Source: a virus
DNA: 41,802 nucleotides
Direction: 5' to 3' (one strand)
Virus record (IMG/VR): IMGVR_UViG_3300045988_137960
The notes below the pieces were generated by a model that saw only the letters and a list, made by a program, of their open reading frames with translations, searched no databases and was not told where the DNA came from. Made by a program: the position numbers and the translations under genes. Every line of letters begins with the position of its first letter. Position 1 is the first letter of the stretch. Of this stretch, positions 2,439 to 40,550 are shown piece after piece.

Positions 2439-2589
2439 ATCCAATCACCCCCTCGTTCTCGGGGAGGTCGACGTCGCACATGCACGCGAGGTACGTGATG
2501 TTGGCGTCGTACGTGTCGAGCGCGGCGACGATGTTCTCCTCCCTGCGGCTACCCTCGATGTCTCCATTGGTTCGCTTGATTACGACCAT
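2413..2589 (-). CDS. Hypothetical small protein (58 aa)
   Basis: Hand-read ORF MVVIKRTNGDIEGSRREENIVAALDTYDANITYLACMCDVDLPENEGVIGYEHAGIED. It overlaps both the RT stop and the XkdX-like start. Confidence 0.4.
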   Translation of the reverse strand: MVVIKRTNGDIEGSRREENIVAALDTYDANITYLACMCDVDLPENEGVIGYEHAGIED

Positions 2590-3604
2590 CGGTATCTCCC
2601 TTCCAGAGGTCCCTGTAGTAGCGCCTCATGCGCCGTATCAACTTGAACGAGTCGCCCTTCTTGACGTGGGCGACCCAGCCCTCGAAGCTCGCGTCGGCGT
2701 CCTCCTTTGAGATGACGCCGCGCTTCGCGAGCCTGACGACGCCCTTGAGGTGCCGCCTCTCCTGCTTGACCTTCGCAGACAGGACGTTCATGAAGACGCG
2801 CCCGGTCGGCGACAGCTTGAAGTGGAAGCCGAGGAAATCTATGCCGCGAGATAGCGGCCTTATGTGGGTCTTCTTCCTGTTGAGAGCGAAGCCGAGCTTG
2901 GCGTACTCATCTGTCAGGACGTCGAGCGCCCGCTCAAGCTCCTCGCGGCTGTCGCTTATGAGGATGGAGTCGTCCATGTACCTTATGTAGTGGCGGACCC
3001 TGAGCCGCTCCTTGACCATGTGGTCTATCGGGCTTAGGACCGACACTCCGGCTATCTGCACGAGCTGCGAGCCGGGGTTGACCCCGACGTCGCCCGTGTA
3101 CTGGTTCTCGAGAATCGAGGCCACGATGCCGACGTACCTCGCATCGAGATGGCGCTCGAATGGTGCGAGCGCCGTCGCGTGCGGCATGTTCGGGTAGTAG
3201 CCGGCCACATCGAGCGTCAGCACCCACCCGTCTTCACCGTGCTTCGCGTAGTGCTCGCGCATGAACCGCTTGAGCCTGTTCCGCGCGAAGTCCGTGCCCT
3301 TGCCGGTCTGGCACGATGCGTTGTCGTATATCCAGTCCCGGCTCATTGCCGGGTAGAGGACGAAGTCGTTGAGCGACCTCTGGAAGACCCTGTCCCTGAA
3401 CGTGATTGCGACGATGTCGCGCTGCTTGGGGTAGTAGATGGGGAAGCGTCTCACCGGACGCTGGACGTATGTGCCGTCCGCAAGCTCGTCTGCGAGTCTC
3501 GCCACCTCGGTCGGCGCGTTGAGCACGAAGCTCGCCACGCTGCCCTTCCACATCACTCCCCTGCGGCATCGCTCCATTGCCTCCCAGAGGCACTCGAACG
3601 ACAT
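2549..3604 (-). CDS. DGR reverse transcriptase
   Basis: 351 aa from MSFECLWEAMERCRRGVMWKGSV. It carries RT motifs including VGVNPGSQLVQ (DGR-type N..SQ) and RYMDDSILI. The 465-aa ORF-track version extends upstream across the TR and is not credible as coding. Confidence 0.9.
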   Translation of the reverse strand: MSFECLWEAMERCRRGVMWKGSVASFVLNAPTEVARLADELADGTYVQRPVRRFPIYYPKQRDIVAITFRDRVFQRSLNDFVLYPAMSRDWIYDNASCQTGKGTDFARNRLKRFMREHYAKHGEDGWVLTLDVAGYYPNMPHATALAPFERHLDARYVGIVASILENQYTGDVGVNPGSQLVQIAGVSVLSPIDHMVKERLRVRHYIRYMDDSILISDSREELERALDVLTDEYAKLGFALNRKKTHIRPLSRGIDFLGFHFKLSPTGRVFMNVLSAKVKQERRHLKGVVRLAKRGVISKEDADASFEGWVAHVKKGDSFKLIRRMRRYYRDLWKGDTDGRNQANQWRHRG

Positions 3605-3757
3605 GGGGTCGACGGCGCTTGCAGGCCCAGCACATCCATCGGAGGTGGGGTCGTCGCCGCCGCGGTGTTCGGCCCTCTCGGGCACTGGACCGGGACTCCT
3701 TGCGCCGGGGTCTGCGGCGGACGGCGCTATGCGTCGCCTCTCCATGCCGCCGTGCCC

Positions 3758-3886
3758 GTTGCAATCGGGGGCCGCGCGATTGCCGTTGTACGCGTTGTTG
3801 TTGTTCACGTTGCCATCGGCGTTCACGATGAACGGGTTGTACGCGTTGTCGCGGTTCGCGGACCGCATCCAGGAGTTCTGGGCAGT
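3758..3886 (-). repeat. DGR template repeat (TR), 129 nt
   Basis: The coding-strand reading TAQNSWMRSANRDNAYNPFIVNADGNVNNNNAYNGNRAAPDCN is rich in AAC codons. It is near-identical to 4386-4517 except at adenines. Confidence 0.85.
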
Positions 3887-3908
3887 ATCAGCCCCGGTCC
3901 AAGAATCT

Positions 3909-4319
3909 CTAATGCCCGGCACGGAAGCGTCGGGCATCTGATTCACTCCATGCGGAGGTCATCGACCTCACGGAACTCACGAGTCCGGACCAATGGTGGA
4001 CCCGCCTGCCGCGGAGGTGGAACGTCTTCTTCGCGACGCCGATGAGGAAGATCAGCTCGTTGCACTTGACCTTGGCCTTGCGCTGGAGGCTCCTCCTCTC
4101 GGCGAGGTCGTCATCGTCGACGACCTTGATGTTGTTCGCGCTCCAGAGGTACTGGCCGATTGCCACGCTGGCGTCCACGATGCGGGCCGTCAGCATGGCG
4201 AACTCGGGCCTGAAGGTCCTCTCGTTGGACGTAATCTCGACCGTGTAGGAGCAAAGCTCATTTGCCTTCGCGAACACTTCCATCCTGCTCTTACCGCGCC
4301 TGCTGGCGGGTACGGTCAT
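3909..4319 (-). CDS. avd: Avd-like accessory variability determinant (four-helix-bundle protein)
   Basis: 136 aa, basic and helical, lying between the target gene and the TR. AAGGAGG sits 7 nt upstream of the ATG at 4317-4319. Confidence 0.8.
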   Translation of the reverse strand: MTVPASRRGKSRMEVFAKANELCSYTVEITSNERTFRPEFAMLTARIVDASVAIGQYLWSANNIKVVDDDDLAERRSLQRKAKVKCNELIFLIGVAKKTFHLRGRRVHHWSGLVSSVRSMTSAWSESDARRFRAGH

Positions 4320-4343
4320 GAATGGCCTCCTTTGGTTGTAGGG

Positions 4344-4367
4344 GCCGGGGCGAGGTGTCGCCCCGGC
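4344..4367 (-). promoter_or_regulatory. Perfect hairpin just downstream of VR (DGR target-recognition hairpin and/or terminator)
   Basis: gccggggcga/tcgccccggc forms a 10-bp stem with a 4-nt loop, 10 nt after the target-gene stop (4377-4379). Confidence 0.6.
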
Positions 4368-4376
4368 GATTGACGA

Positions 4377-5624
4377 TTAGCAGATGGCGCAAGCGGGGGC
4401 CGCGCGATAGCCGCCGTTGCACGCGTAGCTGCTGTTCACGGTGCCACCGGCGCTCACGAGGAACGGGTAGCACGCGCCGGCGCGGTTCGCGGACCGCATC
4501 CAGGAGTTCTGGGCAGTCGTCTTGGCGTTGAGCGCGTACTGGATGTACGCAGGCTCCTTCTGCCACAGCGGGGCCTTGGACGTGCCGCCGCGGGCGAGCT
4601 TCCAGTACTCCCACGGGTCGCCCTCGACGCCGTTGACGGAGGACTCGTTGCAGTTGATCCAGTGCTGCTCGAGGCTCGGCAGGAAGAACTTGTCGAAGGT
4701 CTTGGAGAGCGCCGGCGCATCCGAGGTGCCGCCGTAGGTGATGTAGTTGCGGGCGGTCACGACCTCAATCTCGCCGACTGCCGCGACGAAGTCGTCGGGC
4801 AGCATCGACATGAAGCCGGCCTTGGAATCGTACGGTCCGTAGCACACGGACGCGGACGGGATGTGGTCGTAGTCGTGCTTGGGCTTGAACCAGTTGGCGT
4901 CGCGGCTGTTGAGCCACTGGCGGAGGTTCGAGTGCTCCCAGTCGCCGTTGCCGTAGGCGGCGCACTGGATGGACCAGAGGTCGCCGCTCTTGGGCTTGTC
5001 GAGCGTGCCGAGGCTCGTGCCGGCGCTGCCCTCGGCCACGGCGAGCGTCGCCTTCGGGGTGGCCGCGGAGGCGCTGTCGAACACGTAGACCTTCCAGTCG
5101 GTCACCTTTGTGTCCCAGGCCCCGTAGAAGCCGAGGAGCTGGTTGCCCTTGACGAGCGGGTCGGAGAGGGTGAACTGATAGGTCTTCCCCTTGACCATCG
5201 TGCCCTGGCTGTATCCGAGCGTCACGTTGTAGATGCCGGCGGGAAGGCCGGACTCACCGGCCACGTAGAACGCCTCTCGGGCGTCGAAGCTCGTGGCGAA
5301 TGGCAGCGTGTAGTGCTGCTGGAGGAACATGGCCGGGACGACGTCGCCGACCTTGTTGCGCACGTTGCCGAAGCCCGTGACGTCCCACGGGTCGTCGTAC
5401 ACGTTGGAGCCGTCGGTCAGCTTGACGACGAGCTGGTCGCCAACGGAGAAGGCCTTGTCTGCCTGACCGGACTGGGCGATGTGCTTCACCTCGTCCCAGC
5501 TGACCTCGGTCGAGACGGCGTTGTTGCGCACCATCTGCGCGAGAAGGCCGTTCTGCACGTTGAGCGATGCGAGGATCGCGTTGCCCGTGGTGTCGAGAAC
5601 GAGCCTGTTGTCTGCGTCTGCCAT
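4377..5624 (-). CDS. DGR target protein: receptor-binding/tail-fibre protein with a C-terminal variable (C-type-lectin-like) region
   Basis: 415 aa from MADADNRLVLDTTG (ATG 5622-5624, AAAGGAG upstream). The C-terminus ...TTAQNSWMRSANRAGACYPFLVSAGGTVNSSYACNGGYRAAPACAIC is the VR. The gene sits at the end of the tail module. Confidence 0.85.
   Translation of the reverse strand: MADADNRLVLDTTGNAILASLNVQNGLLAQMVRNNAVSTEVSWDEVKHIAQSGQADKAFSVGDQLVVKLTDGSNVYDDPWDVTGFGNVRNKVGDVVPAMFLQQHYTLPFATSFDAREAFYVAGESGLPAGIYNVTLGYSQGTMVKGKTYQFTLSDPLVKGNQLLGFYGAWDTKVTDWKVYVFDSASAATPKATLAVAEGSAGTSLGTLDKPKSGDLWSIQCAAYGNGDWEHSNLRQWLNSRDANWFKPKHDYDHIPSASVCYGPYDSKAGFMSMLPDDFVAAVGEIEVVTARNYITYGGTSDAPALSKTFDKFFLPSLEQHWINCNESSVNGVEGDPWEYWKLARGGTSKAPLWQKEPAYIQYALNAKTTAQNSWMRSANRAGACYPFLVSAGGTVNSSYACNGGYRAAPACAIC
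4386..4517 (-). repeat. DGR variable repeat (VR), 132 nt
   Basis: Hand alignment to the TR gives 17 substitutions, all at TR coding-strand A positions, plus one extra GGC codon (4410-4415). Confidence 0.85.
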
Positions 5625-9856: not shown

Positions 9857-12800
9857 TCACTTCATCTTGTAGAACCTGCCCGTGCTCTTGATGAGCGTCT
9901 GGACGGCGTCCTCGATGCCGGGATTCGCCTGGACCGTGCGACCGTCGACGGTCACGTAGTAGTTGACCGTCTTGGACTCGCTGACGCTCGAGTAGGACTG
10001 TCCGCCGGACAGCCTCGAGGACACGTTCCCGGCATAGGCGTCGACCGACGCCGCGTAGGCGAGCGTCTCCGCGGCCTTGCTGACGGAACCGACGCCGGAC
10101 ACCATGCCGGCGGCGAAGTTCTGGGCCAGGTGCAGGCCGGAGCGCTTTCCGCCGCGCTCCGCGCCGGACCACGGACCCTTGTCGGGGACCGAGAACTGAA
10201 GGATTGACCTCGCGGCGTTTGCGATGTTGGTCGCGGCCCTCGACACCCAGCCGATTCCCGCGTTGATGCCGGCGGCGAAGTTCGATGCGAGATGCGAGCC
10301 GGACCTGTAGGTATCGCCCGCGGCCGTCATCGTGGCGGCCTTCGCCGCGATGCTCGCGGCTTTCTGGGCCACACTCCACGCCTGCGACCCGATGCCGGAG
10401 CCGAAGTTTCCGGATGCGGTAGCTCCCTTGCCGCGCATGTCGCCGACGTCGCCCATCCTGGCGGCGTTTCCTGCGAGCCTCGCGGCCGTCGACGCGACGA
10501 AGCCGAGGTTCGACCCAGCGCCGTTTGCAAGCTCGGAGGACGCGGTAGCGCCCTTTCCGTTCATCTCGGGGGCGAGGAAGTTGAGCGCGGCGGACAGCGC
10601 CTGCCCGATGGAGGACATGGCGCTGATGGGGCCTTCCCTGCCTTCGTCGATGCCGTTCTGGAGGCCGGCGTCGAGGTCGCCGCCGATGGCATCGAAGACC
10701 GTCGACGGCGAGTGGACGCCGAGAATCTCCTTGGCCCTGTCGATGACGTCCTGGCCGAGCGCGGCGGACGCCTCCGGGGACAGCGTTCCGTTCCTGATGC
10801 CCTCGGCGAGGCCCTCGTCGATGTTGATTCCGGCCTCTTTGCACTTGGTCACAAGCTCGTCGTCGAGCTTGAGCAGGACGGCGTCCTTCATGGCCTGCGT
10901 GGCGTCGGCCGGCAGGTTGGAGTACTGCTCGATGACGTCGGCAAGGGCCTGCGGGCACTCGATTCCGTGCTTGCTGAACACGTCCTTGAGACCGGAAAGG
11001 TCACCGTCGGCAACGTCCTTCATGGCGCTCGTGGCGTCCTGGACGCTGATGGAGCCGTCGGAGATGCCCTGTGCGAGCAACTCCGCGATGCTGAGTCCGA
11101 GTGGCTGCATCTCGGGCGGCAGCGATGCGACCGCGGAGTTGACGCCGTTCTTAACGAACTCCATGGCCTGGTCGATTGTCACCTTGCCACTGCTGATACC
11201 AAGAGCCAGCGAATTGGCGATGCCGGTTCCGAACTGCTCGAACTGCGGGGCGATGCCCTCCATCGCGCCGGCGAGGTTGTTCACGTTCTCAGTGAGGCTC
11301 TCGGATAGCTCGAGTGCCTTCTGCGCGTTGTCGTTGGCCTTCTCCTGCGCCTTGGTGGCCTTGTCGAGGGCTTCCTTCTCCGCGGAGTTCGCGGACACCG
11401 TCTCGTACAGCGAGGCGGCCTGTTCGCGAGTCATGTGGACGCTCTCGTCGAGTCCGGCGAGGTAGTTGTCGATCCACTTCTCTTTGTCGCCGTAGGCCTT
11501 GTTGTACGCCTCCTGAGCCTTCTGGGCCTTGATGGTGGCGCGGGCCTCCTCCTCCATGTACTCTGCCGCGACCTTGGAGTATGCCTGCTTCCTGGCGTTC
11601 AGCTCCCAGGCGTCGGCGTTCGCCTTGATCTCTGAGGTGCTCTTTGACAGTGCGCCGGCTGCGGCGTCCGTGACTTCGACCGAGTCGCCGGTAATCTCGT
11701 TGTACTTCTTGACTGCCTCGGCGAGAAGTTCCTGCTCGTATTCGCTGAGCTGCGACTTAGTCGTCAGCCTCTCGATGGTGCCGATGTAGTTGTCGAGCAG
11801 GATGCTGTTCGTGCCGATGTCGTCGAGCGACTCGCCAAACGCCTCTCCTGTCGCCTTCATCGACTCGTATACGTCGTTAATCTCGTCCTTGAGGGTCGCG
11901 TACGTGTCTCCGAGGCCCTGGACCGAGCCATTGTGCTCAGAGACGATGTCTGAGACGTCGCGGAGCGCACCTGCGACGAGTTCCTGCTCAGCCTTCCACT
12001 TCTGGTACTCGCCGACGAGAGCGGCTACGACCCCGACGGCAAGTCCGATTGCGGCGATGGGAAGCGCGGTCTTCAGCACGTTGCTCGCGCCAGCAAGGAG
12101 CTTTGTCCCCGTTACGGCGAGCTTCTCCTTGGCGGTGAGTCCCGAAAGCTCGTCGGCCATAGCCGCAGCCCTCTTTGCCACGTTGGCGGACGCGCTGTTC
12201 AGCTTGGACAGATGGTCCTTGAGCTGTCTTGCGCCGGTTCCGGCGGTTCCGATAATGGACAGCGCCGGGCCGGCAGCGGCGACCAGCAATCCAGCGCCGG
12301 CAGCGGCCTGCCTGAAGCCGACGTCCGCGTTGGAGAACTCCTTCGCGGCCTTGCCGGCCACGTCGGCGATATTGGAGAAAACGGGGGCCAGTGCGTCGCC
12401 GAGAGCGGACGCGGCGTTCTCTCCCGCGTTCTTGATGCGGGAGATGGAGCCGGACAGGCCCTCGGCCTTCTTGCTCGCCTCTGCGGCGGCATCGCCTGCA
12501 TCTCCCCACTCGTCGCTCACGCCGCTCCACGCGTCGCGCGACATCGTGAGGTTATCGTCGAGGCCCTCGACCGTCTGCATCAGTCCCTCGACCGCCTGTT
12601 TCTGGCGGACCGAGGTGATGCCGAGATCGACGAGGGTCGCGTCGGCGGAACCGCCGCTCTCCTCGATTCCCTTGAGGCCCTCGACGAACGCCTTCAGCAC
12701 GGCAGTCGGGTCCTTGTCCCATGCGGCCTTGAAGTCCTCCGCGGACATCTGCGACGTCCTTGCAAAGGCGTCGAGCGAGTCGCCGCCCTGCGCCACGGCA

Positions 12801-14689
12801 GTCTCGATATTGGACATCGTCTTGCTGATGGCGGTGCCGGCGGACTCGGCGTTCTGGCCGGTCGACGCGATGGACGAGGCCCATGCGAGGATGTCCGGCG
12901 TGGTCATGCCGATGATGGAACCCATGGAGCCGATGCGCTTGGCGATGTCGATGATCTGCGACTCGGTTGATGCGCCGTTGTTTCCTAGGCGCACGAGCGA
13001 GTCGGAGAACGCCGGCATGTGGCTCTCGTCGAGGTCGTCGAGGATGTTCGCGAGCTGTCCGAGGGCAGTCGCGGCCTCGTCGGCATTGAGGTCGGTGGCG
13101 ACGTCGATGTTCGAGACGGTCGTCGCGAACGTGTCGAGCGCCTCTGTGGCGATTCCAAGCTCGCCGCCGATTGCCTGGATGGACAGGATCTGCGACGCCG
13201 AGGTGACGTGCGTGTTGGAGAAGTCGATTGCTGCCTGCTTGAGGCTCTCGAAGTCCTGCTCGGTGCCGTTGACAGTCTTTCGCATGTCGCGGTAGGCGGA
13301 GTCCATGTCGTTTGCGGCACTGATGGACGCGCCGCCGAGCGCGACCATCGCCGGGGTCAGCGTGGCGGACAGCGTCATGCCGAGCGACTTCACGGTGGAC
13401 CATCCGAACTCGACGGTACCTCCCATGTTGCGCATGGATGCAGCAAGTTCGTCGACCTGAATCTTGGCTTCCTCGGCGGACTGCTTGACCTCGATGTACT
13501 CCTTCTGCATGTTCGCGAAGTCTCGGGCTGATGCCGCCTTCTTCTCCTCCGCGGACAGCTCGTACACGGCGGTCTTGGCCCTGAGAACGGCTTCGGCCGC
13601 CTGCTTGTAGTCGTCCTCGGTGGACTTGGCTAGCTGGTCGACCTGCTTCATGCGGCTCTCGGCGTCCTGTAGAGCCGCCTTGGCGTACTGAAGCTCCGAA
13701 TTGATGCCTGACCAGTGCTCGGTGGCCTTCTGCGCCTCGATTGCGACGTTCTTGGTGGAGGCGGCGACCTTGTCGACGCCGGACTCCTCGTACGCCTTCA
13801 GCTTGTCGCCGAGAAGCTCGGCCTTGCGCTTGGCAAGCTCGGCCGCCTGAGCGAGGTCGTTCAGCTTGCGCTCGGCCGCCATCATGTTGTTCGGGTTCAT
13901 CTTGAGGGCCGCATCGCAGCGCTTCGCGTCGGAGATGAGGTCCTTGATGGATGCGTCCATCTTCTCGACCTCGCGGTCGGTCGTGATGAGCCCCTGGGCC
14001 AGGCTCGACGGGATATTGAGCTTGCCCATCTGCGCGGACAGGCTCCTCACGTCGGACGTGGTAACGTCGATCTCGTTCTCGAGATGCTTCAGCTCGGCCA
14101 CCTGCTTGGCGGCCTCGTTCTCGTCGAACGCCTGCTGCCACGCGGCACGCATCTCCAAGATGGCGTCGATGTCGTCATCCGTGACGAGTCCGACTTCCTT
14201 CAGCTTGGCGACGGTCGTCTCGAACTCCTCGTTGGAGCTGCGGATGGCGTCGGAGAGCTTGAAGTCGTCGGGGAACTCATCCATCGCGCGTGCGGCCTTG
14301 TTGATTGGGCCGTACATCTTGTCGAGTTCCGCGTTGAGCGCGTTGTATCGCTTGAGCGCGAGCTGTGCGTTCAGGGCCGCGTTCTCGGTGTGCTCCGCAA
14401 GCTCCTTGACGCTTCGGTCGGTGCCGGCGGCAGTCGCCCTGGACAGCTGCTCGTGTGCCTCCTTGAGCGTCCTGAGCTTGAGGGCGGCCTCCTGTGCGCG
14501 GTCCTTGAGAAGTTCGTACTTTCGCGTGACGTTGGTCAGGCGGCCGGGGTCGAGGTTGGAGGCCTTGGTGATGGCCTTGAGCTGCCTTTGAGTCTCGGCA
14601 CCGGCCTTGGTAGCCGCCTTGAGGGCAGCGGTGAGCTTGGTGGTGTCGCCGCCGATCTTGATGGTCAGTCCGCGATATGCGTCCGCCAT
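9857..14689 (-). CDS. Tail tape measure protein
   Basis: 1610 aa, beginning MADAYRGLTIKIGGDTTKL, helical and Ala-rich throughout. It sits in the canonical position after the chaperone pair. Confidence 0.9.
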   Translation of the reverse strand: MADAYRGLTIKIGGDTTKLTAALKAATKAGAETQRQLKAITKASNLDPGRLTNVTRKYELLKDRAQEAALKLRTLKEAHEQLSRATAAGTDRSVKELAEHTENAALNAQLALKRYNALNAELDKMYGPINKAARAMDEFPDDFKLSDAIRSSNEEFETTVAKLKEVGLVTDDDIDAILEMRAAWQQAFDENEAAKQVAELKHLENEIDVTTSDVRSLSAQMGKLNIPSSLAQGLITTDREVEKMDASIKDLISDAKRCDAALKMNPNNMMAAERKLNDLAQAAELAKRKAELLGDKLKAYEESGVDKVAASTKNVAIEAQKATEHWSGINSELQYAKAALQDAESRMKQVDQLAKSTEDDYKQAAEAVLRAKTAVYELSAEEKKAASARDFANMQKEYIEVKQSAEEAKIQVDELAASMRNMGGTVEFGWSTVKSLGMTLSATLTPAMVALGGASISAANDMDSAYRDMRKTVNGTEQDFESLKQAAIDFSNTHVTSASQILSIQAIGGELGIATEALDTFATTVSNIDVATDLNADEAATALGQLANILDDLDESHMPAFSDSLVRLGNNGASTESQIIDIAKRIGSMGSIIGMTTPDILAWASSIASTGQNAESAGTAISKTMSNIETAVAQGGDSLDAFARTSQMSAEDFKAAWDKDPTAVLKAFVEGLKGIEESGGSADATLVDLGITSVRQKQAVEGLMQTVEGLDDNLTMSRDAWSGVSDEWGDAGDAAAEASKKAEGLSGSISRIKNAGENAASALGDALAPVFSNIADVAGKAAKEFSNADVGFRQAAAGAGLLVAAAGPALSIIGTAGTGARQLKDHLSKLNSASANVAKRAAAMADELSGLTAKEKLAVTGTKLLAGASNVLKTALPIAAIGLAVGVVAALVGEYQKWKAEQELVAGALRDVSDIVSEHNGSVQGLGDTYATLKDEINDVYESMKATGEAFGESLDDIGTNSILLDNYIGTIERLTTKSQLSEYEQELLAEAVKKYNEITGDSVEVTDAAAGALSKSTSEIKANADAWELNARKQAYSKVAAEYMEEEARATIKAQKAQEAYNKAYGDKEKWIDNYLAGLDESVHMTREQAASLYETVSANSAEKEALDKATKAQEKANDNAQKALELSESLTENVNNLAGAMEGIAPQFEQFGTGIANSLALGISSGKVTIDQAMEFVKNGVNSAVASLPPEMQPLGLSIAELLAQGISDGSISVQDATSAMKDVADGDLSGLKDVFSKHGIECPQALADVIEQYSNLPADATQAMKDAVLLKLDDELVTKCKEAGINIDEGLAEGIRNGTLSPEASAALGQDVIDRAKEILGVHSPSTVFDAIGGDLDAGLQNGIDEGREGPISAMSSIGQALSAALNFLAPEMNGKGATASSELANGAGSNLGFVASTAARLAGNAARMGDVGDMRGKGATASGNFGSGIGSQAWSVAQKAASIAAKAATMTAAGDTYRSGSHLASNFAAGINAGIGWVSRAATNIANAARSILQFSVPDKGPWSGAERGGKRSGLHLAQNFAAGMVSGVGSVSKAAETLAYAASVDAYAGNVSSRLSGGQSYSSVSESKTVNYYVTVDGRTVQANPGIEDAVQTLIKSTGRFYKMK

Positions 14690-17551: not shown

Positions 17552-18850
17552 CTAAGACGTCTTCTTGGGGGCGGAGATGACGAGCAGACCGTTGGTGTCG
17601 CCGAGCTTGCCGTCGACGACGGTCTGCATCTTGAGCTTGGTGACGTTCTTGTCCTCGTCGTTCCAGCGGACGGAGCGCATGCCCATCTGCTGGTTGACGA
17701 TGTAGTTGGACAGGTTGCCGAACAGGATGCAGGGGGTGTCGGCTGCGCCGCCCTTGGCATCCTCGTAGTTGGGCAGGATGTCCTCGGGGACGATGTTCAC
17801 GTTCTTGCCCATCAGGCGGTAGGACTCGCTGTGAGCGCCGTCGAGGCCGTAGTTGACGCGGGCGACCGGCTGGCCGTTGGCGTCGACCATGCCGTCGACG
17901 TAGGTGTCCCACGTGGCCTGGGTCATGGTCCACTCGCCGCGGCTGCGGTACGGGGCCTTGACCTTCTTGAGGATGTTGGCCCAGCCTGCCCACGTGCCGA
18001 TGGCCTTCTCGTCGAAGGTCACCTTGTTGTCGGCGGTGAGTCGGGGGTCCTTGAGGATGCCGAGCGGCATACCGGAACCGCTGCCGTTCACGCCGGCTGC
18101 CTCGAGGGCGCGGACCATGGCCTCTGCGCACTTCTCGGGGAACTGGCGCTTGAACATGTCCATGGTGGTCACCTGGGACAGGAAGCTCTGAGCGACCTTG
18201 ACCTCGAGCATGTAGTAGAGGAAGGAGATGCGGCTGGGGTCGGTTGCCTTCTGGGTGTCGGAGGGCTTGGCCTCGGTGACCCAGCTGGCGGTGGGCAGGT
18301 AGTCCCAGATGCTGATCTCAAGGCCGCCCTGGACGTTCATCTTGGTGAACTTGGGCCAGATGGTGCCGTACTCGGACATCTTCTGGATGATGGTGTTCGA
18401 GAGGGTGGTCGGGATGAAGTGCGGGACGTCGGAGGTCTGCGTGAAGGCGTCGGCGCGGACGTTCTCGGGGACCATGCCGCGGGTCACGAGGCCGTCGGGG
18501 TACTCGATGCCGCGGACGGTGTAGTCGTAGAAGGCGCGGTTGTAGTCCTCGGTGTCGAACGGGTCCTCGTTGCGGGTGACGTAGACGTCGGGGTTGGCGG
18601 TCTGAGCGCCGCCGGTGACGAGTGCGCCGGCACCGTTGGCGACGGCAGCGACACGGGAGGAGCGGAGTGCGTTGGCCTGGTTGCGGCGCTCGACCTCCTC
18701 CTGGATGAGGCGGACCTCCTCGTTGAGGACGTCCATGCCGACGGTGCTGTCGGCGTTGTCGAGTTCGGCGACTACCTCGGCACGGCGGTGCTCGAGGGAG
18801 GCTTCATCGAGGGCGCGGTACTGGGCCGCGTCCATGGGGATGAACTCCAT
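17552..18850 (-). CDS. Major capsid protein, HK97 fold
   Basis: 432 aa with an N-terminal coiled delta-like region followed by a capsid body. It follows the prohead protease. Confidence 0.9.
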   Translation of the reverse strand: MEFIPMDAAQYRALDEASLEHRRAEVVAELDNADSTVGMDVLNEEVRLIQEEVERRNQANALRSSRVAAVANGAGALVTGGAQTANPDVYVTRNEDPFDTEDYNRAFYDYTVRGIEYPDGLVTRGMVPENVRADAFTQTSDVPHFIPTTLSNTIIQKMSEYGTIWPKFTKMNVQGGLEISIWDYLPTASWVTEAKPSDTQKATDPSRISFLYYMLEVKVAQSFLSQVTTMDMFKRQFPEKCAEAMVRALEAAGVNGSGSGMPLGILKDPRLTADNKVTFDEKAIGTWAGWANILKKVKAPYRSRGEWTMTQATWDTYVDGMVDANGQPVARVNYGLDGAHSESYRLMGKNVNIVPEDILPNYEDAKGGAADTPCILFGNLSNYIVNQQMGMRSVRWNDEDKNVTKLKMQTVVDGKLGDTNGLLVISAPKKTS

Positions 18851-18866: not shown

Positions 18867-19472
18867 TTAGAGCAAACGTAGCTTGAGCGCGGCCGCCTGA
18901 CGCTGCCTGCGCTCGTTCTCGCGGCGCACCAACTCCTGGTGCTCCTGCTCGATCACTCCGTCGAGGTAGGAACGCGCGTGAATGTCTGTGTCTTGGTCGG
19001 CCGGGATGGATACGGCGGATACGTCGAACACCTTCTCGACCTTGGTGATGTAGCTGGTGCGGGTTTTCTCGTCCCACTCCCAGCCGTCGGGGGCAACGTT
19101 GAAGCCCCAGCTCATCTTGTCGATGAGCCCGTTGCTGATGGCCTCGTACAGGTCGCGTCCGGCCTGCGATCCGCTTAGGTCGGCACGGACGAACAGGCCG
19201 TGCTCGTCGACGGTAAGCTCAAGCGTGCCGTTCTTGAGTCGCGCCAGCGTCTGGCCGCAGTGGTTGAGCTGGAAGATGACATCCGACATGTCGGCACCGG
19301 CCATTGCCGTGGAGCGGATGCACTCCTTCGCGCGCCTGAAGTCGTACGGGACGTCGAAGGTGGTCGCGTAGCCCTCGACCGTGTACGCGCTCCTGCGGTC
19401 CTCTGTTTCCGCGACCGCATGGAAGTTGCCAGCGAAGCTGCGGTACTCGCGCTGGTCGGGTTTGTAGGGCAT
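18867..19472 (-). CDS. Prohead protease (HK97 family)
   Basis: 201 aa, ...VEGYATTFDVPYD...FQLNHCGQTLAR...MSWGF...VSAVSIPA. It lies between the portal and capsid genes. Confidence 0.85.
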   Translation of the reverse strand: MPYKPDQREYRSFAGNFHAVAETEDRRSAYTVEGYATTFDVPYDFRRAKECIRSTAMAGADMSDVIFQLNHCGQTLARLKNGTLELTVDEHGLFVRADLSGSQAGRDLYEAISNGLIDKMSWGFNVAPDGWEWDEKTRTSYITKVEKVFDVSAVSIPADQDTDIHARSYLDGVIEQEHQELVRRENERRQRQAAALKLRLL

Positions 19473-20764
19473 CAGTCGTCCTCCTCATTCTTTCCCTTGG
19501 TGTCGACGTCGTTGTAGATGGCGTCGTCGCCCTCGAGGTCAAGCTCGCCCTCGCCGTAGCTGTTGCCCTTCGGGCGTGCCACGAGCGGGGTCTTTCCGCC
19601 CGTCTGCACCTGGACGTTTCCGTCGGCGTCGAACACGACGTACTCGCCGCGCTCGATGAAGACGTCGCCTCCCGGCACGGGCGGCAGCTGTAGGACCTCG
19701 CGCGACTCGTTGATGGTCATGACGCGGCGGTCGAGCATGTCTCGAATCATGTTTCGCTTGGATGCGTTGGTTGCGTACTCCAGCCTGTTCGCGCTGAAGC
19801 AGATGCCGTTGCCGTGGCGGCGCTCGATGGGCGTGAACAGCATCTGGCTGAGGCCCTCTCCGAGCTGGACCGCGAACGGCTCAATCTGGCTCTCGTAGAA
19901 CGCGCCGAACGTCTCCTCGGAGTACTTGGACTGGATGATGTCCTCGTTGATTCCGAAATAGTTGTAGACGTTCGTCTCGATGCGCTCCATCTCTCCGGAG
20001 TCGATGGTGTAGTTCTGAGGCTCCACCTGCTTGATGTTCTCGAAGGTGTTGTCGTAGAGCATCAGGCCCGAGGTGTTCTTGGAGCTTAGGTTCGTCTCCG
20101 AGAACTCTTTTCGCTTCCTGTCGAGGTCCTCCGGCCTGACGGAGCCGTTGATAGCGCCGATGAACTGAATCTTGGCGGAGTTCTTGATTGCGACCTCCTG
20201 CGCCTGCTCCTGGTAATCCATGAGCGCGAGCGTCGAGTTCAGCGCGTCGTTGGCGCTGCCGAAGAAGTCGCTCTCATACTGGAAGCGCGTCAACAGGCAC
20301 ACGTACCTGAGTTCGATTGCCATCGTGTCGCCGGAGTCGAGGTAGAACCTAATCCAAGGCTCGCCGGCGTACTCGACGACCTCGGCGTGTGCGAACTTCA
20401 GCGGGAACAGGCCCGTGATGTTGCCGCCGGTGTCGAGCGACGGGACGACCGCCGCCGTGTTGTCGTTGAGCATGATGGTCATGAGGCGGGCCAACATCTT
20501 AGGCCAGCTCATGTACTGGTTGGGGGCGGTCAGGATCATGCGCTTGATGCGCGGTTTGGAGTCACCAAGCACCTCGGGCTTGAGTTTCGACGCGAACATG
20601 GCGCTCTTCTCGATTGCTGAGCGCGTGAGGGCCTTCTCGTAGAGCTGTCCGCCCCACGTGGAGAAAGCCGGTGCGTATTCGGTTAGCGTCTTGAACTCTG
20701 GCGCGAGCACAACCTTGGAGGCCTGCTGTGCGTGCTTGGGACGGAAAATATCTAGAAGTCCCAT
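19472..20764 (-). CDS. Portal protein
   Basis: About 430 aa. The ATG at 20762-20764 (MGLLDIF) is preferred over the TTG of the ORF track. ATGA overlaps the protease start. Confidence 0.9.
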   Translation of the reverse strand: MGLLDIFRPKHAQQASKVVLAPEFKTLTEYAPAFSTWGGQLYEKALTRSAIEKSAMFASKLKPEVLGDSKPRIKRMILTAPNQYMSWPKMLARLMTIMLNDNTAAVVPSLDTGGNITGLFPLKFAHAEVVEYAGEPWIRFYLDSGDTMAIELRYVCLLTRFQYESDFFGSANDALNSTLALMDYQEQAQEVAIKNSAKIQFIGAINGSVRPEDLDRKRKEFSETNLSSKNTSGLMLYDNTFENIKQVEPQNYTIDSGEMERIETNVYNYFGINEDIIQSKYSEETFGAFYESQIEPFAVQLGEGLSQMLFTPIERRHGNGICFSANRLEYATNASKRNMIRDMLDRRVMTINESREVLQLPPVPGGDVFIERGEYVVFDADGNVQVQTGGKTPLVARPKGNSYGEGELDLEGDDAIYNDVDTKGKNEEDD

Positions 20765-20804
20765 GACCCAAATGTAAGGCAACGACGCCGGCAGTCAAGA
20801 CGAA

Positions 20805-20845: not shown

Positions 20846-22579
20846 CTACATGGACGCCTCGTAGTCCTCCCAGTGCCGCTTGAGGCACACGTAGGCGCAA
20901 ATCTCGGCGGCCCACCCGTCGATGCGGCCGGACGAGCCGTTGGCCTTGACGGGCTTGATGTTGTCGTTGGTGTCCGTGATTATGCCGACGTTCATGCGGC
21001 ACCACTGGTTGACGGGGTTGTTGTTGTCGACGATGCCCTTGCGGTCATAGACGGTCCTTATCTCCTTCATGGGGATGGACAGGGTCTGCGGGCCGAATCG
21101 GACCTCCTCGCTGCGCTTCTTGCCGACGAACTGGCGGGCCATGTCCTTCCACGAGTCGTCCTGGAGGTGCCACGGGTCGTATCCCATGGCGAACGGGTAG
21201 ACGTTGAACTCGTCCCTGAGCTGCTGCATCCACTCGAACACGACTCGGTGGTCGATGGTGTTTCCGGGCACCACGCGCACCAGCCCGGCGTCAATCCACC
21301 TGTCGTACGGCACGTTGTCGCGGTTCTTGCGCAGGCCGCTCTTGCGGTGGTGCTCGAGCTGCGACTCCGGTATCCAGTACATAGACATCTCGTAGATTTT
21401 GGGGTCGTCCGGCCTCATCATGAGCGCCTGGGCGCTGGTGAGGTCGATGGTGTCAGACGCGTCGTAGCCGACGATGCAGTAGCGGAAGCCCATGTCCTTC
21501 CAGTCGAACTCCTCGCGGTTAACGGCCTGCTCGAACGTGAGCCATGCCGACGCGCGGTTCTCCGGCATGTTGAAGTCCTTGGTCAGGACCGTCGGAAGGT
21601 AGCTCGGGTCGTTCTTGGCCTTCTGCACCTGGGCGCGTAGGTACTCGACCTTCTTGACTGTGCCGAGGCCAGGGTTGGCCTTGACCCAGCACGACTCGTT
21701 GGTCCACTCCGCGCGGCTGTCCAGCTCGTAGACGAACGGTAGGAAGTGGTCGTCCTCGAACTGCCCGTCGAGCCAGCGCGACGCGTAGTCGTACTGGTCG
21801 TCGAACAGGTTGTCTCGGTTGAAGCCGTTGGTCGTCAGCTCGAGAATCATCGGCTGGTCGCGTGCGGCGGTGGCCTGCTTGACGAGGTCGAACAGGTCGC
21901 GGTTCACGATGGCGTGAAGCTCGTCGACCACGGCGCAGTGTACGTTCAGGCCGTCGAGCGAGCGCGTCTGCGACGACAGCGGCGTGTAGTATCCGCGGTT
22001 CGAGTCGAAGATGAGGCCGTCCTGGTGTCGCGACGGGATGATGCCCTTGTGCAGGCGCTTGTTGAGCGCCGGCGACTGCGAAACCATCGACAGCATCGCG
22101 CCGTACATGAGGGACGCCTGGTCCTTGTTCGTGGCGACGGAGTAGAGCTGCGGGGCGAACTCCCCGTCCTTCGTCATGAGGTACAGCAAGATTGCCGCGC
22201 CAAGCTCGGTCTTACCGTTCTTACGCGCGATGATGAGCAGGACCTCGTTGAACTGCCTCATGCCGAGTTCGTCGACGAAGCCGAACGCCGTCTCGATGAA
22301 GGCAAGCTCGTAGTCCTCGAGGACGAGGTGCTTTCCGACCTTGCCCTGCGAGATGAAGATGAACCTCTCGATGAACTTGACGGGCCTCAGCGCCTTCTCG
22401 GCATCGTAGTGCCAGCACTTGTACCCGTCGTCGAAGCGGTCGATCAACTTCTTGGCGAGCTTGATGACCTTCTGGCTCGTCGTTATCTTGCCGTCGATGA
22501 CGTCCTGGAAATACCTCTTTGCCTCGAGGCCGTCGCGCTCGGGAGGCACGTACCCGCCGGAGGGCTTCCTAGAGTTCAT
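20846..22579 (-). CDS. terL: Terminase large subunit
   Basis: 577 aa with an ATPase N-terminal half (IIARKNGKTELGA, CAVVDELH) and a nuclease C-terminal half. Confidence 0.9.
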   Translation of the reverse strand: MNSRKPSGGYVPPERDGLEAKRYFQDVIDGKITTSQKVIKLAKKLIDRFDDGYKCWHYDAEKALRPVKFIERFIFISQGKVGKHLVLEDYELAFIETAFGFVDELGMRQFNEVLLIIARKNGKTELGAAILLYLMTKDGEFAPQLYSVATNKDQASLMYGAMLSMVSQSPALNKRLHKGIIPSRHQDGLIFDSNRGYYTPLSSQTRSLDGLNVHCAVVDELHAIVNRDLFDLVKQATAARDQPMILELTTNGFNRDNLFDDQYDYASRWLDGQFEDDHFLPFVYELDSRAEWTNESCWVKANPGLGTVKKVEYLRAQVQKAKNDPSYLPTVLTKDFNMPENRASAWLTFEQAVNREEFDWKDMGFRYCIVGYDASDTIDLTSAQALMMRPDDPKIYEMSMYWIPESQLEHHRKSGLRKNRDNVPYDRWIDAGLVRVVPGNTIDHRVVFEWMQQLRDEFNVYPFAMGYDPWHLQDDSWKDMARQFVGKKRSEEVRFGPQTLSIPMKEIRTVYDRKGIVDNNNPVNQWCRMNVGIITDTNDNIKPVKANGSSGRIDGWAAEICAYVCLKRHWEDYEASM

Positions 22580-26893: not shown

Positions 26894-26912
26894 CGACTCG
26901 GGCGCAGCGCGC

Positions 26913-27030
26913 GATTTTGATTTCGATTTTCAAATTGTGATTTTGATTTCGATTTCGATTTCGATTTCATTTTCCGATTTTGATTTCCGATTTCGATTTC
27001 GATTTCGGTTCCGGGGGCCGATTTCGGTTC
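26913..27030. repeat. Hexamer/dodecamer tandem array (GATTTC)n and (GATTTTGATTTC)n
   Basis: About 8 gatttc units and 3 gattttgatttc units, plus two gatttcggttccgg units, in a non-coding gap next to the replication genes. Confidence 0.9.
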
Positions 27031-35645: not shown

Positions 35646-36479
35646 CTAGTTAACGTCGATGATTTCGCCGGTTTCGGCGTCGACGTTCGCGGGGACCTCT
35701 ACCGGCTTGGGTGCCAAGGGGTCCTCGAAGATGCGGGTGCCGTCCTCGTCGAGCACGACGGGCGTGCTCTCGTCCTCGGTCACGGCCTTGGCAACCTCGA
35801 CCGAGCGTGGAAGCAGGCCGCGGTTGAAGGCGCGTCGGATGACAGTCTTCTCGGCCATAGCGGCGTAGTCGGACTTCCACGGGCCGCTGGAGCCTGCCTT
35901 TGAGCGCTCCCTGACCGCGTCGACCTCCTTCTTGCTCATCTGGAGGAACACGAGTCCGCCGTCCTTCAGGTGGCACGATAGGTACACTCGCCTGAGCTTC
36001 GAGTCATCGTGGTCGGCATCCAGGTTGGGCCTGTAGGTGAAGTGGACGCCCGTTTCGTCCTCCCAGCTGTCGAACTCGTCGCCCTCGTACACGCACTGCG
36101 TACTGATGGTCTTGACCTGGCCGGAGCGTCGGACAAGCTCCAACATGCCGTTCTTGCCGAGGATGAACTGCGCCTCTTTGCGGTGCGTCTTGCTGTTGTA
36201 GTACGGCAGGATGTATGCGTTGCCCATGATGTCGTTAGGCTCGAGGCCAGTCTCGGCGCACTTGAGGCAGCACCCCAACATACTCTGCGTCGAGCAGTTC
36301 TTAAGGTCCGGTATCTGCTTGTAGGTAGCGATTGCAAGCTGCGTCAGGCGCTCCGGGGTGAAGCCCTTCGGCATGACCGCCTGCAACTGCGGTGCGCATC
36401 GCTTGATTAGCCCGGCGAACGAGTTGTCGGGCTGTTTGGCCTGCTGAATCTCCTGCTTGGCCTGCGTGATTGCTCCCAT
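35646..36479 (-). CDS. recT: RecT-family single-strand annealing protein
   Basis: 277 aa from MGAITQAKQE (AGGAGG RBS), paired with the upstream YqaJ exonuclease. Confidence 0.85.
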   Translation of the reverse strand: MGAITQAKQEIQQAKQPDNSFAGLIKRCAPQLQAVMPKGFTPERLTQLAIATYKQIPDLKNCSTQSMLGCCLKCAETGLEPNDIMGNAYILPYYNSKTHRKEAQFILGKNGMLELVRRSGQVKTISTQCVYEGDEFDSWEDETGVHFTYRPNLDADHDDSKLRRVYLSCHLKDGGLVFLQMSKKEVDAVRERSKAGSSGPWKSDYAAMAEKTVIRRAFNRGLLPRSVEVAKAVTEDESTPVVLDEDGTRIFEDPLAPKPVEVPANVDAETGEIIDVN

Positions 36480-36487
36480 ATGACCTC

Positions 36488-37393
36488 CTAATCCTTCTTT
36501 TTCTCCGCGTACTTGATGTAGCCGCCGCTCGGCTTGCCGTTGCGCATGAAGCGCGTCCACGTGAACTTGCCGTCGGGCGTGACCAGCCCCCGGTCGTCCC
36601 CGATGAGCTGGCACAGCCCGTTTGTGGCGGCCTGGTATCCCTTCTCGGCGTCGTCTCGCACCTTCTTGGCGTCGAGCCACGCAGTCGCCTCGCTTGGCGT
36701 CTCGTTCAGCTCGATAAGCTCGCCGGGTTGCAGGTGCTTCGATGCCAGGGCCTTGAGTTCCGCGCCGATCTCGCCGATTGGCGGCTCGGTGCCGCCCTCG
36801 ACCATCGCCCAGAAGTCGTCGACGGCCCTGTCGACCGCCTTGACGTCGTCCTCGTCGCGCATGACTCGGAACTCCCTGTACTTCTGCCCGCCGATGAGCA
36901 CCGCGACGTCGGCGAACTTTCGCCCGGTCACGCTCATGTAGTGGGTCACCTGAGTCAGGTAGTACAGCGGCACGCCCTCATCCCAGTCGTGCTCCCTGTA
37001 TAGCGACGCCGTCTTTATCTCTAAGATTCCCCATCCGAGTTCGGGGTCCCTGACCTCGTAATCAAGAGAGGCCTGGGCATGAGGGCGTCCGATGCTCCTG
37101 CACACAGCGTTGACTCGTCTGACAGTGCGTCCTGGGTGTAGAGCGGCATAATGGCTGCCGACCACAGGCTCGAGGATATTGCCCCATTGAACCGCCTCGA
37201 CCGTGCTGAGGTCGGCCGGCTGCACGTACCCGAGCTTCTCGGCCCATACCTCGTAAGGCCCTCGATATTGAGACAGCCCCATGATGGCCGCGACGTCAGA
37301 GCCTCCGATTCCGCGGCGGCGCTGCTCGAGCCATTCGTCGCTCCCATCGCACCTGATGAGGTCGAAGACACGCCCCTCTCCTACGACAGGCAC
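36488..37393 (-). CDS. YqaJ/lambda-Exo-type recombination exonuclease
   Basis: SDEWLEQRRRGIGGSDVAAIMGLSQYRGPYEVWAEKLG is the YqaJ N-terminal signature. Confidence 0.85.
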   Translation of the reverse strand: MPVVGEGRVFDLIRCDGSDEWLEQRRRGIGGSDVAAIMGLSQYRGPYEVWAEKLGYVQPADLSTVEAVQWGNILEPVVGSHYAALHPGRTVRRVNAVCRSIGRPHAQASLDYEVRDPELGWGILEIKTASLYREHDWDEGVPLYYLTQVTHYMSVTGRKFADVAVLIGGQKYREFRVMRDEDDVKAVDRAVDDFWAMVEGGTEPPIGEIGAELKALASKHLQPGELIELNETPSEATAWLDAKKVRDDAEKGYQAATNGLCQLIGDDRGLVTPDGKFTWTRFMRNGKPSGGYIKYAEKKKD

Positions 37394-38979: not shown

Positions 38980-39999
38980 TTACTTGACGTCAACGAGCGG
39001 CGTGGAGTTCTCGGGCACGACGACGAGGTTGCCGTTCTTGCCGATGCTCTTGAGCGCGTCGATATAGTTCTGCTGGATAACGTTCTCGTTGAGGGAGTTC
39101 GCTAGGATGGCGTTGGCGTCAGCCTGGCCCTGCGCCTCGATCTTCTTGGTTTCGGCCTCGACCTTGGCAGTCTCCTGCTTGTTCTGAGCCTTCTGCTTCG
39201 CGACCTCGGCGGCCTGAGCCTCGCTGTAGCTCTTGGTGATGTTCTTCGGGTAGCGGACGTCCTGCACGCTCACCTGCTCGACCATGAGGCCCATGCCGTC
39301 CCACTTCTCGGTGAGGGCCTTCTGCACGGCCTTGGTGAACTGCGAGCGGTCGGTGAGCATAGTCACCGTGTCGAACTTGCCGGACACCTCGCGGGTGACG
39401 GCGCGGACGTCGTTGGAGATGTACTTCTCGACGAAAGACTCCTGCGTACCGTACTCGCTGTAGAGCGTGAGCGCGGCGTCGGGGTTGAGCGAGTAGTTGA
39501 CCTGGATGTCGATGTTCGCGCTAGCGCCGGACTTGTCGTTGATGGTCACCTGCTTGCCGTCGTAGGAGCCGCCGTTCACCTTGTAGTCGGTGTCCCCGTA
39601 GAAGTTGATGAGGTTGTTGCGGGTGTCGTAGGTGATGACGTTTTGCCACGGGGCCTTCCCGTGGAAGCCGGCCTCGGACGTGGAGCCTGCGAGCGAGCCG
39701 CCGATATTGCGGATGACGCAGACCTCGCCGGTGTCCTGCGAGTAGAAGCATCCGGTGGCCGCGATGACGGCCGCGAGCGCGATGACGGCGAGGCCACCTG
39801 CGACCGGCACGGTTGCGGGTTCATCGGGCCTTCTGGGCTTATAGCAGCGATTGCGGTCCTCGTACTCCTTGAGGGCCTCGAGGTACTCCTCGTTCTTGCG
39901 CTCGTACTCCTCTCGCTCGCGCTTGTTATGCGAGTGCGCAACCACGCACTTGGCGGCACCCGCGATACCGAGTCCGGCGCAGATGATGAGTCGAATCAT
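38980..39999 (-). CDS. SPFH/Band-7 (prohibitin/HflC-like) membrane protein
   Basis: 339 aa with an N-terminal TM, a charged linker and a second TM. An SPFH body follows (VIRNIGG...ITYDTR...VQDVRYP) and then an Ala/Lys/Gln-rich coiled coil. Confidence 0.8.
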   Translation of the reverse strand: MIRLIICAGLGIAGAAKCVVAHSHNKREREEYERKNEEYLEALKEYEDRNRCYKPRRPDEPATVPVAGGLAVIALAAVIAATGCFYSQDTGEVCVIRNIGGSLAGSTSEAGFHGKAPWQNVITYDTRNNLINFYGDTDYKVNGGSYDGKQVTINDKSGASANIDIQVNYSLNPDAALTLYSEYGTQESFVEKYISNDVRAVTREVSGKFDTVTMLTDRSQFTKAVQKALTEKWDGMGLMVEQVSVQDVRYPKNITKSYSEAQAAEVAKQKAQNKQETAKVEAETKKIEAQGQADANAILANSLNENVIQQNYIDALKSIGKNGNLVVVPENSTPLVDVK

Positions 40000-40030: not shown

Positions 40031-40116
40031 TGGCAGGCGCGGAGGGACTCGAACCCCCATCGGCGTTACCGCCACAGTTTTGGAGACTGCTGCTCTACCG
40101 GTTGAGCTACGCGCCT
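40031..40116 (-). tRNA. tRNA-Trp: tRNA-Trp(CCA), 86 nt including CCA, with an unusual long variable arm
   Basis: AGGCGCG-TA-GCTC-AACCGGTA-GAGC-A-GCAGT-CTCCAAA-ACTGT-[GGCGGTAACGCCGAT]-GGGGG-TTCGAGT-CCCTC-CGCGCCT-G-CCA. A1:U72 and G73 match bacterial tRNA-Trp. Confidence 0.8.
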
Positions 40117-40117
40117 G

Positions 40118-40191
40118 TGGAGTGCTGCCCAGGAGTCGCACCTGGTTTCACGGAGTTGCAGTCCGCCGCCTAGCTGTTCGGCCAGCAGCAC
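40118..40191 (-). tRNA. tRNA-Cys: tRNA-Cys(GCA)
   Basis: Acceptor GTGCTGC/GCAGCAC, discriminator U, anticodon loop CTGCAAC. The T-loop is TGCGACT (non-consensus position 55). Confidence 0.8.
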
Positions 40192-40192
40192 A

Positions 40193-40269
40193 TGGAGTCG
40201 CCAGAGGGAATCGAACCCCCAACACGCGGTTTAGGAAACCGCCGCTCTATCCCATTGAGCTATGACGAC
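40193..40269 (-). tRNA. tRNA-Arg: tRNA-Arg(CCT)
   Basis: Acceptor GTCGTCA/TGGCGAC, anticodon loop TTCCTAA, T-loop TTCGATT. Confidence 0.85.
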
Positions 40270-40274
40270 GAAAA

Positions 40275-40360: not shown

Positions 40361-40364
40361 AGTG

Positions 40365-40455: not shown

Positions 40456-40457
40456 GT

Positions 40458-40546: not shown

Positions 40547-40550
40547 GAAA

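Follow-up and report, generated by a model that had tools for sequence, protein, structure and literature searches.

The window analysed here, by which we mean the whole 41,802-nucleotide stretch of viral DNA in IMG/VR record IMGVR_UViG_3300045988_137960, contains a diversity-generating retroelement (DGR), and we hold with high confidence that this is a functional, canonical element of the type known from Bordetella phage BPP-1, carried by a complete ~41.7 kb temperate, siphovirus-like phage of Collinsella. A first-pass annotation of the sequence had proposed a complete DGR between the tail and lysis genes and each of the parts it named was found, the cassette running, on the minus strand, from a target gene with its variable repeat (VR) through a hairpin, the accessory gene avd, a template repeat (TR) and a spacer to a reverse transcriptase (RT) gene (Table 1). 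All cassette genes lie on this strand, with tail genes upstream and two small open-reading frames (ORFs), a holin and an amidase endolysin downstream. The DGR mechanism is itself already known, and the window is a further canonical case with a published class of target, proteins with a DUF6273 domain.

The two repeats were recovered by a direct-repeat search, which paired 3782-3886 with 4413-4517 (spacing 631) and 3761-3785 with 4389-4413 (spacing 628), and thus TR and VR differ by 3 nt in length. A local alignment of TR (3886 to 3761) with VR (4517 to 4389) contained 15 substitutions, all 15 at TR adenines (eight A>G, four A>C and three A>T), and one 3 nt insertion in VR, which the first-pass annotation had left undiscussed. 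With 33 adenines among 126 TR positions, the hypergeometric probability of such a placement is 1e-10. The first 36–37 nt of the repeats are identical, in agreement with the 36 nt originally proposed, and the translated TR and VR strings also match those read at that time. The original count of 17 substitutions in repeats of 129 and 132 nt was too high, because one extra codon (AAC in TR, GCC in VR) had been counted past the end of the homology, and this codon is not hypervariable in the population data; the adenine-only placement itself stood, with no substitution at a non-adenine position in the computed alignment of the window. The hypervariable VR codons extend from the first AAC (4506-4508) to about 4407-4409. 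That every difference reflects adenine mutagenesis was correct as to position, but has to be given up for one site: at TR position 122, directly after the G/C run, TR reads GAT and VR reads GCT (C at 4393), a difference fixed in all 11 copies described below and in the distant elements L003, L006 and L007. As C is fixed here in every VR, we interpret the site as an IMH*/IMH-type (initiation of mutagenic homing) discriminator between TR and VR and not as a product of mutagenesis, which leaves 14 mutagenic substitutions in the window copy. The insertion is a tandem duplication of one GGC codon, and may result from slippage of the RT or of replication, or be an assembly artefact of a heterogeneous VR. 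A second VR was looked for elsewhere in the genome and not found.

Natural copies show the same pattern on a larger scale. We compared 10 further copies of the element from Collinsella metagenome-assembled genomes, prophages and IMG/VR contigs, 11 with the window, the sources being prophages L001 and L002, genome bins L009–L015 and IMG/VR contigs L089 and L090; at 90% identity the RT and target clusters hold 524 and 596 distinct sequences, respectively. VR was different in every one of the 11 copies, whilst TR was near-invariant in the 11 nucleotide copies, and its translation was almost invariant in 16 population sequences. Across the 11 copies 193 of the 198 TR–VR mismatches fell at TR adenines, and in the nine copies compared column by column 31 of the 33 TR adenines varied across VRs. 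Hypervariability was likewise limited to adenine-encoded codons in 17 proteins drawn from the 596-member target cluster, in which codons with A at position 1 or 2 took a mean of 4.5 distinct residues versus 1.05 for the others (P = 4e-8). Where TR itself has changed at a non-adenine position, the change is repeated in the cognate VR (L009 column 52, L010 column 114), and L003, a relative at 85% identity, mirrors its TR changes in its own VR at columns 15, 72, 114, 117 and 118. Such lineage-specific matches are the signature of directional copying from TR to VR, and the element family is active in nature.

The protein diversified in this way is probably a receptor-binding tail protein. Its gene, with the ribosome-binding site (RBS) AAAGGAG before the ATG at 5624, directly follows the tail genes and is the last gene of the tail module, after a tail-fibre-like coiled-coil protein; Pfam places DUF6273 at residues 224-413 (E 3.8e-10). 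An AlphaFold2 (AF2) model of the protein (predicted local distance difference test, pLDDT, 92) matched phage DUF6273 proteins best in BFVD, and also a tail-collar fibre and a receptor-binding protein. A sequence search against the PDB gave no match and a full-length Foldseek search recovered no C-type-lectin DGR target, the model being similar to 9qa6, the DUF6273 region of a Thomasclavelia ramosa immunoglobulin A (IgA) peptidase (Foldseek E 9.3e-9, 380 columns). The N-terminal region of this peptidase is annotated as DUF6273 (PMC12402451), and the fact that the only resembling solved structure comes from a gut-bacterial IgA peptidase lends something to another reading, in which the DGR works but its target is an accessory adhesin for mucus, immunoglobulin or other gut ligands and not the receptor-binding protein used in adsorption. 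One PHROG match, to a 'Hoc-like head decoration' family, points the same way, the ligands of DUF6273 DGR targets were left open in a previous study (PMC10743442), and such ligands have been hypothesised for tentaclins, which are DGR-diversified phage proteins with an N-terminal C-lec domain and Ig-like domains (PMC10743442). We nevertheless give an adhesin little credence, as the gene closes the tail module after a tail-fibre-like protein just as in BPP-1, its structural matches include tail-collar fibre and receptor-binding proteins, and it has no Ig-like repeats of the kind seen in tentaclins. With DUF6273 and VR at the C-terminal end, a helix and one beta-sandwich, and no chain of Ig repeats, the target is not a tentaclin, and a receptor-binding tail protein is the reading carried forward here. 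A DUF6273 homologue of 36% identity was also present at 4001-5218 of contig L008, in a myovirus-like tail module (baseplate J); no adjacent avd, TR, RT or TR/VR repeat was detected in the 6.3 kb of this contig, which ends ~1.1 kb downstream, and DUF6273 tail proteins therefore also occur without an adjacent DGR.

Both features expected past the hypervariable codons, a GC-rich VR end and a perfect 10 bp hairpin, had been noticed at first pass and are in place. The hairpin lies within the 57 nt intergenic gap directly past the stop codon of the target gene and its DNA fold has a centroid of −14.6 kcal/mol. A GC-rich hairpin right past a stop codon could merely terminate transcription, or stabilise mRNA between the target gene and avd, and take no part in retrohoming, and the stem is identical in close relatives, hence these yield no covariation to speak against it. 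This explanation is improbable, however, as the hairpin has no T-tract, a terminator scan makes no call on the minus strand, and in more distant elements the stem sequence changes yet the pairing, the loop size and the distance from the G/C run are kept. The equivalent hairpins are GGCGGGCAA-CCCC-TTGCCCGCC in L006, GCGGGGCAA-CACT-TTGCCCCGC in L007 and GCGGGGCC-GAAA-GGCCCCGC in BPP-1, with stems of 8–9 bp that differ in sequence and retain both the pairing and a 4 nt loop, and the hairpin begins 26 nt from the G/C run in the window and 25 nt from it in BPP-1. The window thus carries what reads as the IMH-type element and downstream hairpin of DGRs, with a putative role in homing; in BPP-1 the hairpin/cruciform is reportedly needed for target recognition.

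The spacer between TR and RT, estimated earlier at ~150 nt, measures 156 nt, and the spacers of ten elements (RT identity 34–100%) share the motif RCAAGGAG. Cryo-EM of the BPP-1 system (bioRxiv 10.1101/2023.10.23.563531) has described an Avd-binding stem-loop just past TR, a bRT-binding stem-loop, a 4 bp primer duplex between TR and spacer (Sp53-56:TR118-121) with priming at Sp A56, and a 'cPRT Stop' in which a duplex between spacer and the sequence upstream of TR is followed by a short stem-loop and unpaired adenosines. The long stem-loop directly past TR in the window would correspond in position to the first of these. At the primer duplex, TRs that end in G-T (TTGT, or TCGT in L024) go with a spacer ACAA, a C/G-to-T/A switch concordant in all ten elements, of which L006 and L024 have an internal mismatch within the duplex. 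By analogy with BPP-1, priming is predicted at A3700, with A3765, directly past the G/C run, as the first base to be copied, and such a start fits the fixed, non-transferred position 122. Pairing across the stop duplex was stronger between cognate strands (mean −21.0 kcal/mol) than between non-cognate strands (−13.3 kcal/mol; P = 8e-6, 10 elements), and the cognate partner was the best one in eight of ten elements and tied in one more. The order of duplex, short stem-loop and A-rich tract occurs in ten of ten elements and is the same as in the BPP-1 cPRT Stop. Counterparts of the Avd-binding stem-loop, the primer duplex and the cPRT Stop therefore appear to be in place, with duplexes that covary, and predict priming in cis; the hairpin in the distal spacer may, tentatively, correspond to the stem-loop bound by bRT. 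When the spacers were aligned with MAFFT, RNAalifold gave one hairpin only, because stems of variable length were misaligned, and the other RNA elements emerged from duplex folding with the conserved CAAGGAG as anchor. Rfam contains no family for the spacer, matching only tRNAs in the window, and the BPP-1 spacer gave no sequence-level alignment with those of the window's clade.

The helical ORF that had been called Avd-like matches the PHROG family of DGR Avd proteins, and its predicted fold agrees. A word-indexed search for the alignment gave close relatives only, whereas an exhaustive search gave the 578 relatives used for the AF2 model, which has four helices (pLDDT 92.8). In Foldseek its best 11 PDB matches all belonged to the Avd/23S-rRNA-IVP family (2rld, 2gsc, 4dwl_D), with TM 0.68/0.85 and a root-mean-square deviation of 2.3 Å to BPP-1 Avd (4dwl_D). 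A sequence search of the PDB gave no match and Pfam did not recognise the window Avd, three of 55 family members weakly matching 23S_rRNA_IVP or bAvd. As modelled, the protein is the basic four-helix accessory protein of a DGR.

With these parts intact, the window copy is itself predicted to be active. One could suppose instead that the family is active but this copy inert or decaying, its VR frozen and the GGC duplication a trace of drift since the last homing; the one-codon insertion is missing from the 10 other nucleotide copies and from 16 other proteins of the cluster, and no RBS can be recognised before the RT start at 3604. We judge this very unlikely, since the window RT is 100% identical to the RTs of L009–L011, since TR, G/C run, hairpin, avd and every RNA element of the spacer have stayed intact, and since the insertion is in frame and upstream of the IMH-like region, so that the next homing would overwrite it.

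The RT belongs to the DGR clade. Its best PDB match is BPP-1 bRT (8ub7, E 2.9e-22), the aligned 8ub7_A sequence being identical to Brt translated from NC_005357, and the best group II intron RT follows at E 3.5e-10, as expected of the DGR-type RT that had been proposed; the PHROG match is to phrog_1423 (267 bits). The RYMDD motif reported at first pass is present, together with equivalents of bRT F66, R74, I76, G182 and Q187 and the catalytic Asp residues. The DGR-type N-x-x-SQ motif reported alongside it is a misreading, as NPGSQ does not occupy the position of the [I/V/L]GxxxSQ signature: a gap-free alignment sets Brt I181-G-S-L-T-S-Q187 opposite P177-G-S-Q-L-V-Q183 of the window (3055-3075), which retains G and the last Q but begins with P and has V in sixth place. 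This PGSQLVQ differs from the QGxxxSP of other RT classes. Over 73 relatives (loci L016–L088) the motif grades from PIGNLTSQ in distant elements through GLGSQVSQ to NPGSQ[LMI][VI]Q in the sub-clade of the window, and by this sequence comparison PGSQxxQ is a derived variant, sub-clade-wide and nested within PIGNLTSQ and GLGSQVSQ relatives. RT relatives at 24–50% identity have canonical DGR motifs and adenine-biased TR/VR pairs of their own, and the assignment is based on these together with the PDB and PHROG matches. That the RT is of another class (group II intron, retron, Abi/DRT defence) and lies by chance beside a repeat can be dismissed, since the NCBIfam and PADLOC matches to group II maturase and DRT/UG models are weak, those in NCBIfam scoring far too low (80.8 and 38.6 bits for cut-offs of 300 and 200 bits), the only partly present [I/V/L]GxxxSQ grades into canonical DGR RTs, bRT leads the PDB matches by 12 orders of magnitude, intron RNA, a maturase/En domain and msr-msd are all absent, and adenine-specific transfer from TR to VR is seen directly.

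I181 of bRT promotes adenine mutagenesis (PMC7826257), and it is a minor oddity that an enzyme which is evidently mutagenic has proline in its place. The sub-clade RTs, with Pro for I181 and Val or Ile for S186, still mutate adenines efficiently in natural copies and might reach adenine infidelity by a partly different active-site solution, with the GGC duplication as a product of RT slippage, a speculation we think rather unlikely; if the duplication did arise in this way, DGRs would occasionally yield length variation besides substitutions. As to the start of the gene, the RT frame runs on without a stop across the upstream spacer and TR and takes in an ATG at 3937, within the end of avd (region 3604-3946, minus strand), and gene callers therefore give an 'RT' of 462–465 aa with TR translated in frame. 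Differences at the three codon positions number 8/15/14 in the spacer versus 43/30/100 in the RT, and without a third-position bias the spacer is not protein-constrained. In L003 (6001-6366) no in-frame ATG, GTG or TTG lies between TR and the RT domain before codon 122. The conserved spacer AAGGAG was considered as an RBS for a GTG start, and was rejected because it would not hold generally, L003 having no start codon downstream of it.

Several points weigh against a functional BPP-1-type DGR in the window. Its VR has a 3 nt duplication, which DGR homing does not normally make and which is maybe an artefact, five of the 198 TR–VR mismatches across the copies are at non-adenine positions, and the diversity of VR is known here from comparison between copies, not from the population in the source sample. 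At the first and sixth places of the signature motif the RT departs from the canonical residues, with P at the first where bRT has I181, and its start codon is provisional. Foldseek E-values for Avd are weak (2e-3 to 0.1), a common outcome with helical bundles, and BLASTP, profile search and hhalign show no similarity between this protein and BPP-1 Avd. Lastly, when the full-length target was searched against the PDB with Foldseek, 9qa6 was the sole match and C-type-lectin matches were insignificant.

As a functional BPP-1-type DGR, the element would operate as follows. A transcript covering the end of avd, TR and the 156 nt spacer would fold around a complex of RT and Avd, in which the spacer GCAA would pair with the TTGC at the 3′ end of TR, and adenosine 3700 would prime cDNA synthesis in cis just 3′ of the G/C run. 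The RT would then copy TR faithfully except opposite adenines, where any base would be inserted, and synthesis would stop at the duplex between the spacer and the sequence just upstream of TR. The G/C run, the VR-specific flank and the hairpin past them would direct integration. The outcome would be combinatorial variation at ~20 adenine-encoded residues in the DUF6273 (C-type-lectin-like) tip of the probable receptor-binding protein, which would let the phage change or regain recognition of host surfaces.

Table 1 Features of the DGR cassette and of the phage genome in the window.
Feature	Coordinates	Strand	Description
DGR RT	2549..3604	minus	351 aa from ATG at 3604 (start provisional); RVT_1 E 2.7e-16
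Distal-spacer hairpin	3630..3652	minus	RNAalifold: 9 pairs, each with a compensatory change in at least one sequence
Stem-loop GCCC-GAGA-GGGC	3672..3683	minus	followed by CGAACA (to 3666)
Predicted stop duplex, spacer strand AGTCCCGGTCCAG	3685..3697	minus	directly past the GG that follows GCAA
Predicted primer strand GCAA	3700..3703	minus	pairs with TR 3′ end TTGC (3761-3764)
Long stem-loop directly past TR	3706..3758	minus	RNA fold −26.8 kcal/mol; similar in L003, L006, L016
TR	3761..3886	minus	126 nt; 33 adenines, 12 AAC codons, 1 AAT codon
Predicted stop duplex, upstream strand TTGGACCGGGGCT	3890..3902	minus	between avd and TR; pairs with 3685-3697
avd	3909..4319	minus	136 aa, pI 10.3, four-helix bundle; phrog_3206 'Avd protein of DGR' E 4.8e-11
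Hairpin/cruciform GCCGGGGCGA-CACC-TCGCCCCGGC	4344..4367	minus	perfect 10 bp stem, 4 nt loop
IMH-like VR 3′ end	4368..4406	minus	13 nt G/C-only run (4394-4406), then 26 nt unlike TR
VR	4389..4517	minus	129 nt, last ~43 variable-region codons; by alignment to TR
GGC-GGC one-codon tandem duplication (extra Gly) in VR	4410..4415	minus	not in TR
Target gene	4377..5624	minus	415 aa; N-terminal helix, beta-sandwich domain, C-terminal DUF6273 domain
Tape measure	9857-14689		1610 aa
HK97-type capsid protein	17552-18850		
Portal	19472-20782		
TerL	20846-22579		
RecT	35646-36680		

The window begins and ends with an exact 119 nt direct repeat (1-119 and 41684-41802), and these identical ends show it to be a circularly closed assembly of a complete phage genome of ~41,683 bp. 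The near-identical prophages L001 and L002 adjoin bacterial genes, and the genome bins with an RT at 98–100% identity mostly carry Collinsella labels (five of seven among L009–L015). No GenBank phage proved similar at the nucleotide level when the DGR region and 24 kb of the genome were compared by megablast. The main texts of two large DGR surveys do not mention Collinsella or Actinobacteria as DGR hosts, an absence of mention that is not proof of novelty. The genome also has a dense array of 10 tRNA genes (Trp, Cys, Arg, two Ser, Ile, Gly, Asn, Met and Gln; 40031-40983, minus strand), the count being 10 by ARAGORN and nine by Rfam, with the unusual anticodon AGA in one tRNA-Ser. Beside this array is an SPFH/Band 7 family protein, an unusual phage cargo (339 aa, 38980-39999, minus strand). 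At 26912-27011, in a genome otherwise of 62–66% GC, degenerate CGATTT/TGATTT units are repeated in tandem with a period of ~12 nt, an array that looks like iterons or an origin, or like a set of regulatory binding sites.

The understanding of DGRs is unchanged by this element, however it is a clean natural example of an active DGR, combining a complete phage genome with at least 10 independent field copies, whose VRs all differ while TR is the same. Well-supported DGR activity now includes a temperate phage of Collinsella, an actinomycete abundant in the gut, for which the GenBank set searched contained no characterised phages, and the covariation gives comparative support for conserved BPP-1 cis-priming and stop RNA elements in a distant clade of gut phages. 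We consider its interest modest, residing in the actinobacterial host, the derived RT motif, the one-codon duplication in VR and the comparative support for the RNA architecture. In practice it can serve annotation and work on the host range of Collinsella phages, and it offers a compact DGR scaffold whose RT motif is a variant one.

Three known systems bear comparison with the window. The peptidase structure 9qa6 is the only solved structure significantly similar to the target model, but it belongs to a cell-wall-anchored bacterial metallopeptidase that is not DGR-diversified and shares 13% sequence identity with the target. A second system is that of the DGRs with DUF6273 targets already known in gut phages, namely Faecalibacterium phages Lelie, CP11, Roos and Pioen, and nd4 and nd12, where the protein is termed 'target2' (PMC11792537, PMC10743442). 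These are likewise temperate and gut-associated, with VR at the C-terminal end of DUF6273 (PMC11792537, PMC10743442), and by tblastn the window RT shares 28–34% identity with those of nd4/nd12 and 32–33% with those of the Faecalibacterium phages. They differ in that their hosts are Bacillota, whereas that of the window is Collinsella (Actinomycetota), and no nucleotide similarity is shared; the window has one target gene and not two, and its target has an extra N-terminal beta-sandwich and no Ig-like repeats.

The third system is the prototype, BPP-1 (mtd-avd-TR-brt), from which the window differs in several respects. The RT is only 26% identical and has PGSQLVQ in place of IGSLTSQ, Avd is without detectable sequence similarity, the DUF6273 target has neither sequence nor profile (hhalign) similarity to Mtd, the hairpin stem is 10 bp and not 8 bp, and the host is a Gram-positive gut actinomycete instead of Bordetella. 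Yet the annotated order in BPP-1 (tail fibre, mtd with VR, avd, TR, brt, small ORFs, endolysin) is that of the window, including the position between tail fibre and lysis genes. In both, a VR-specific flank comes after the G/C run and a GC-rich hairpin with a 4 nt loop lies 25–26 nt past that run. Avd is a basic four-helix protein in both, and in both the spacer, of ~150 nt, can pair with TR in a 4 bp primer duplex and with the sequence upstream of TR in a stop duplex, and has a short stem-loop with adenosines after it.

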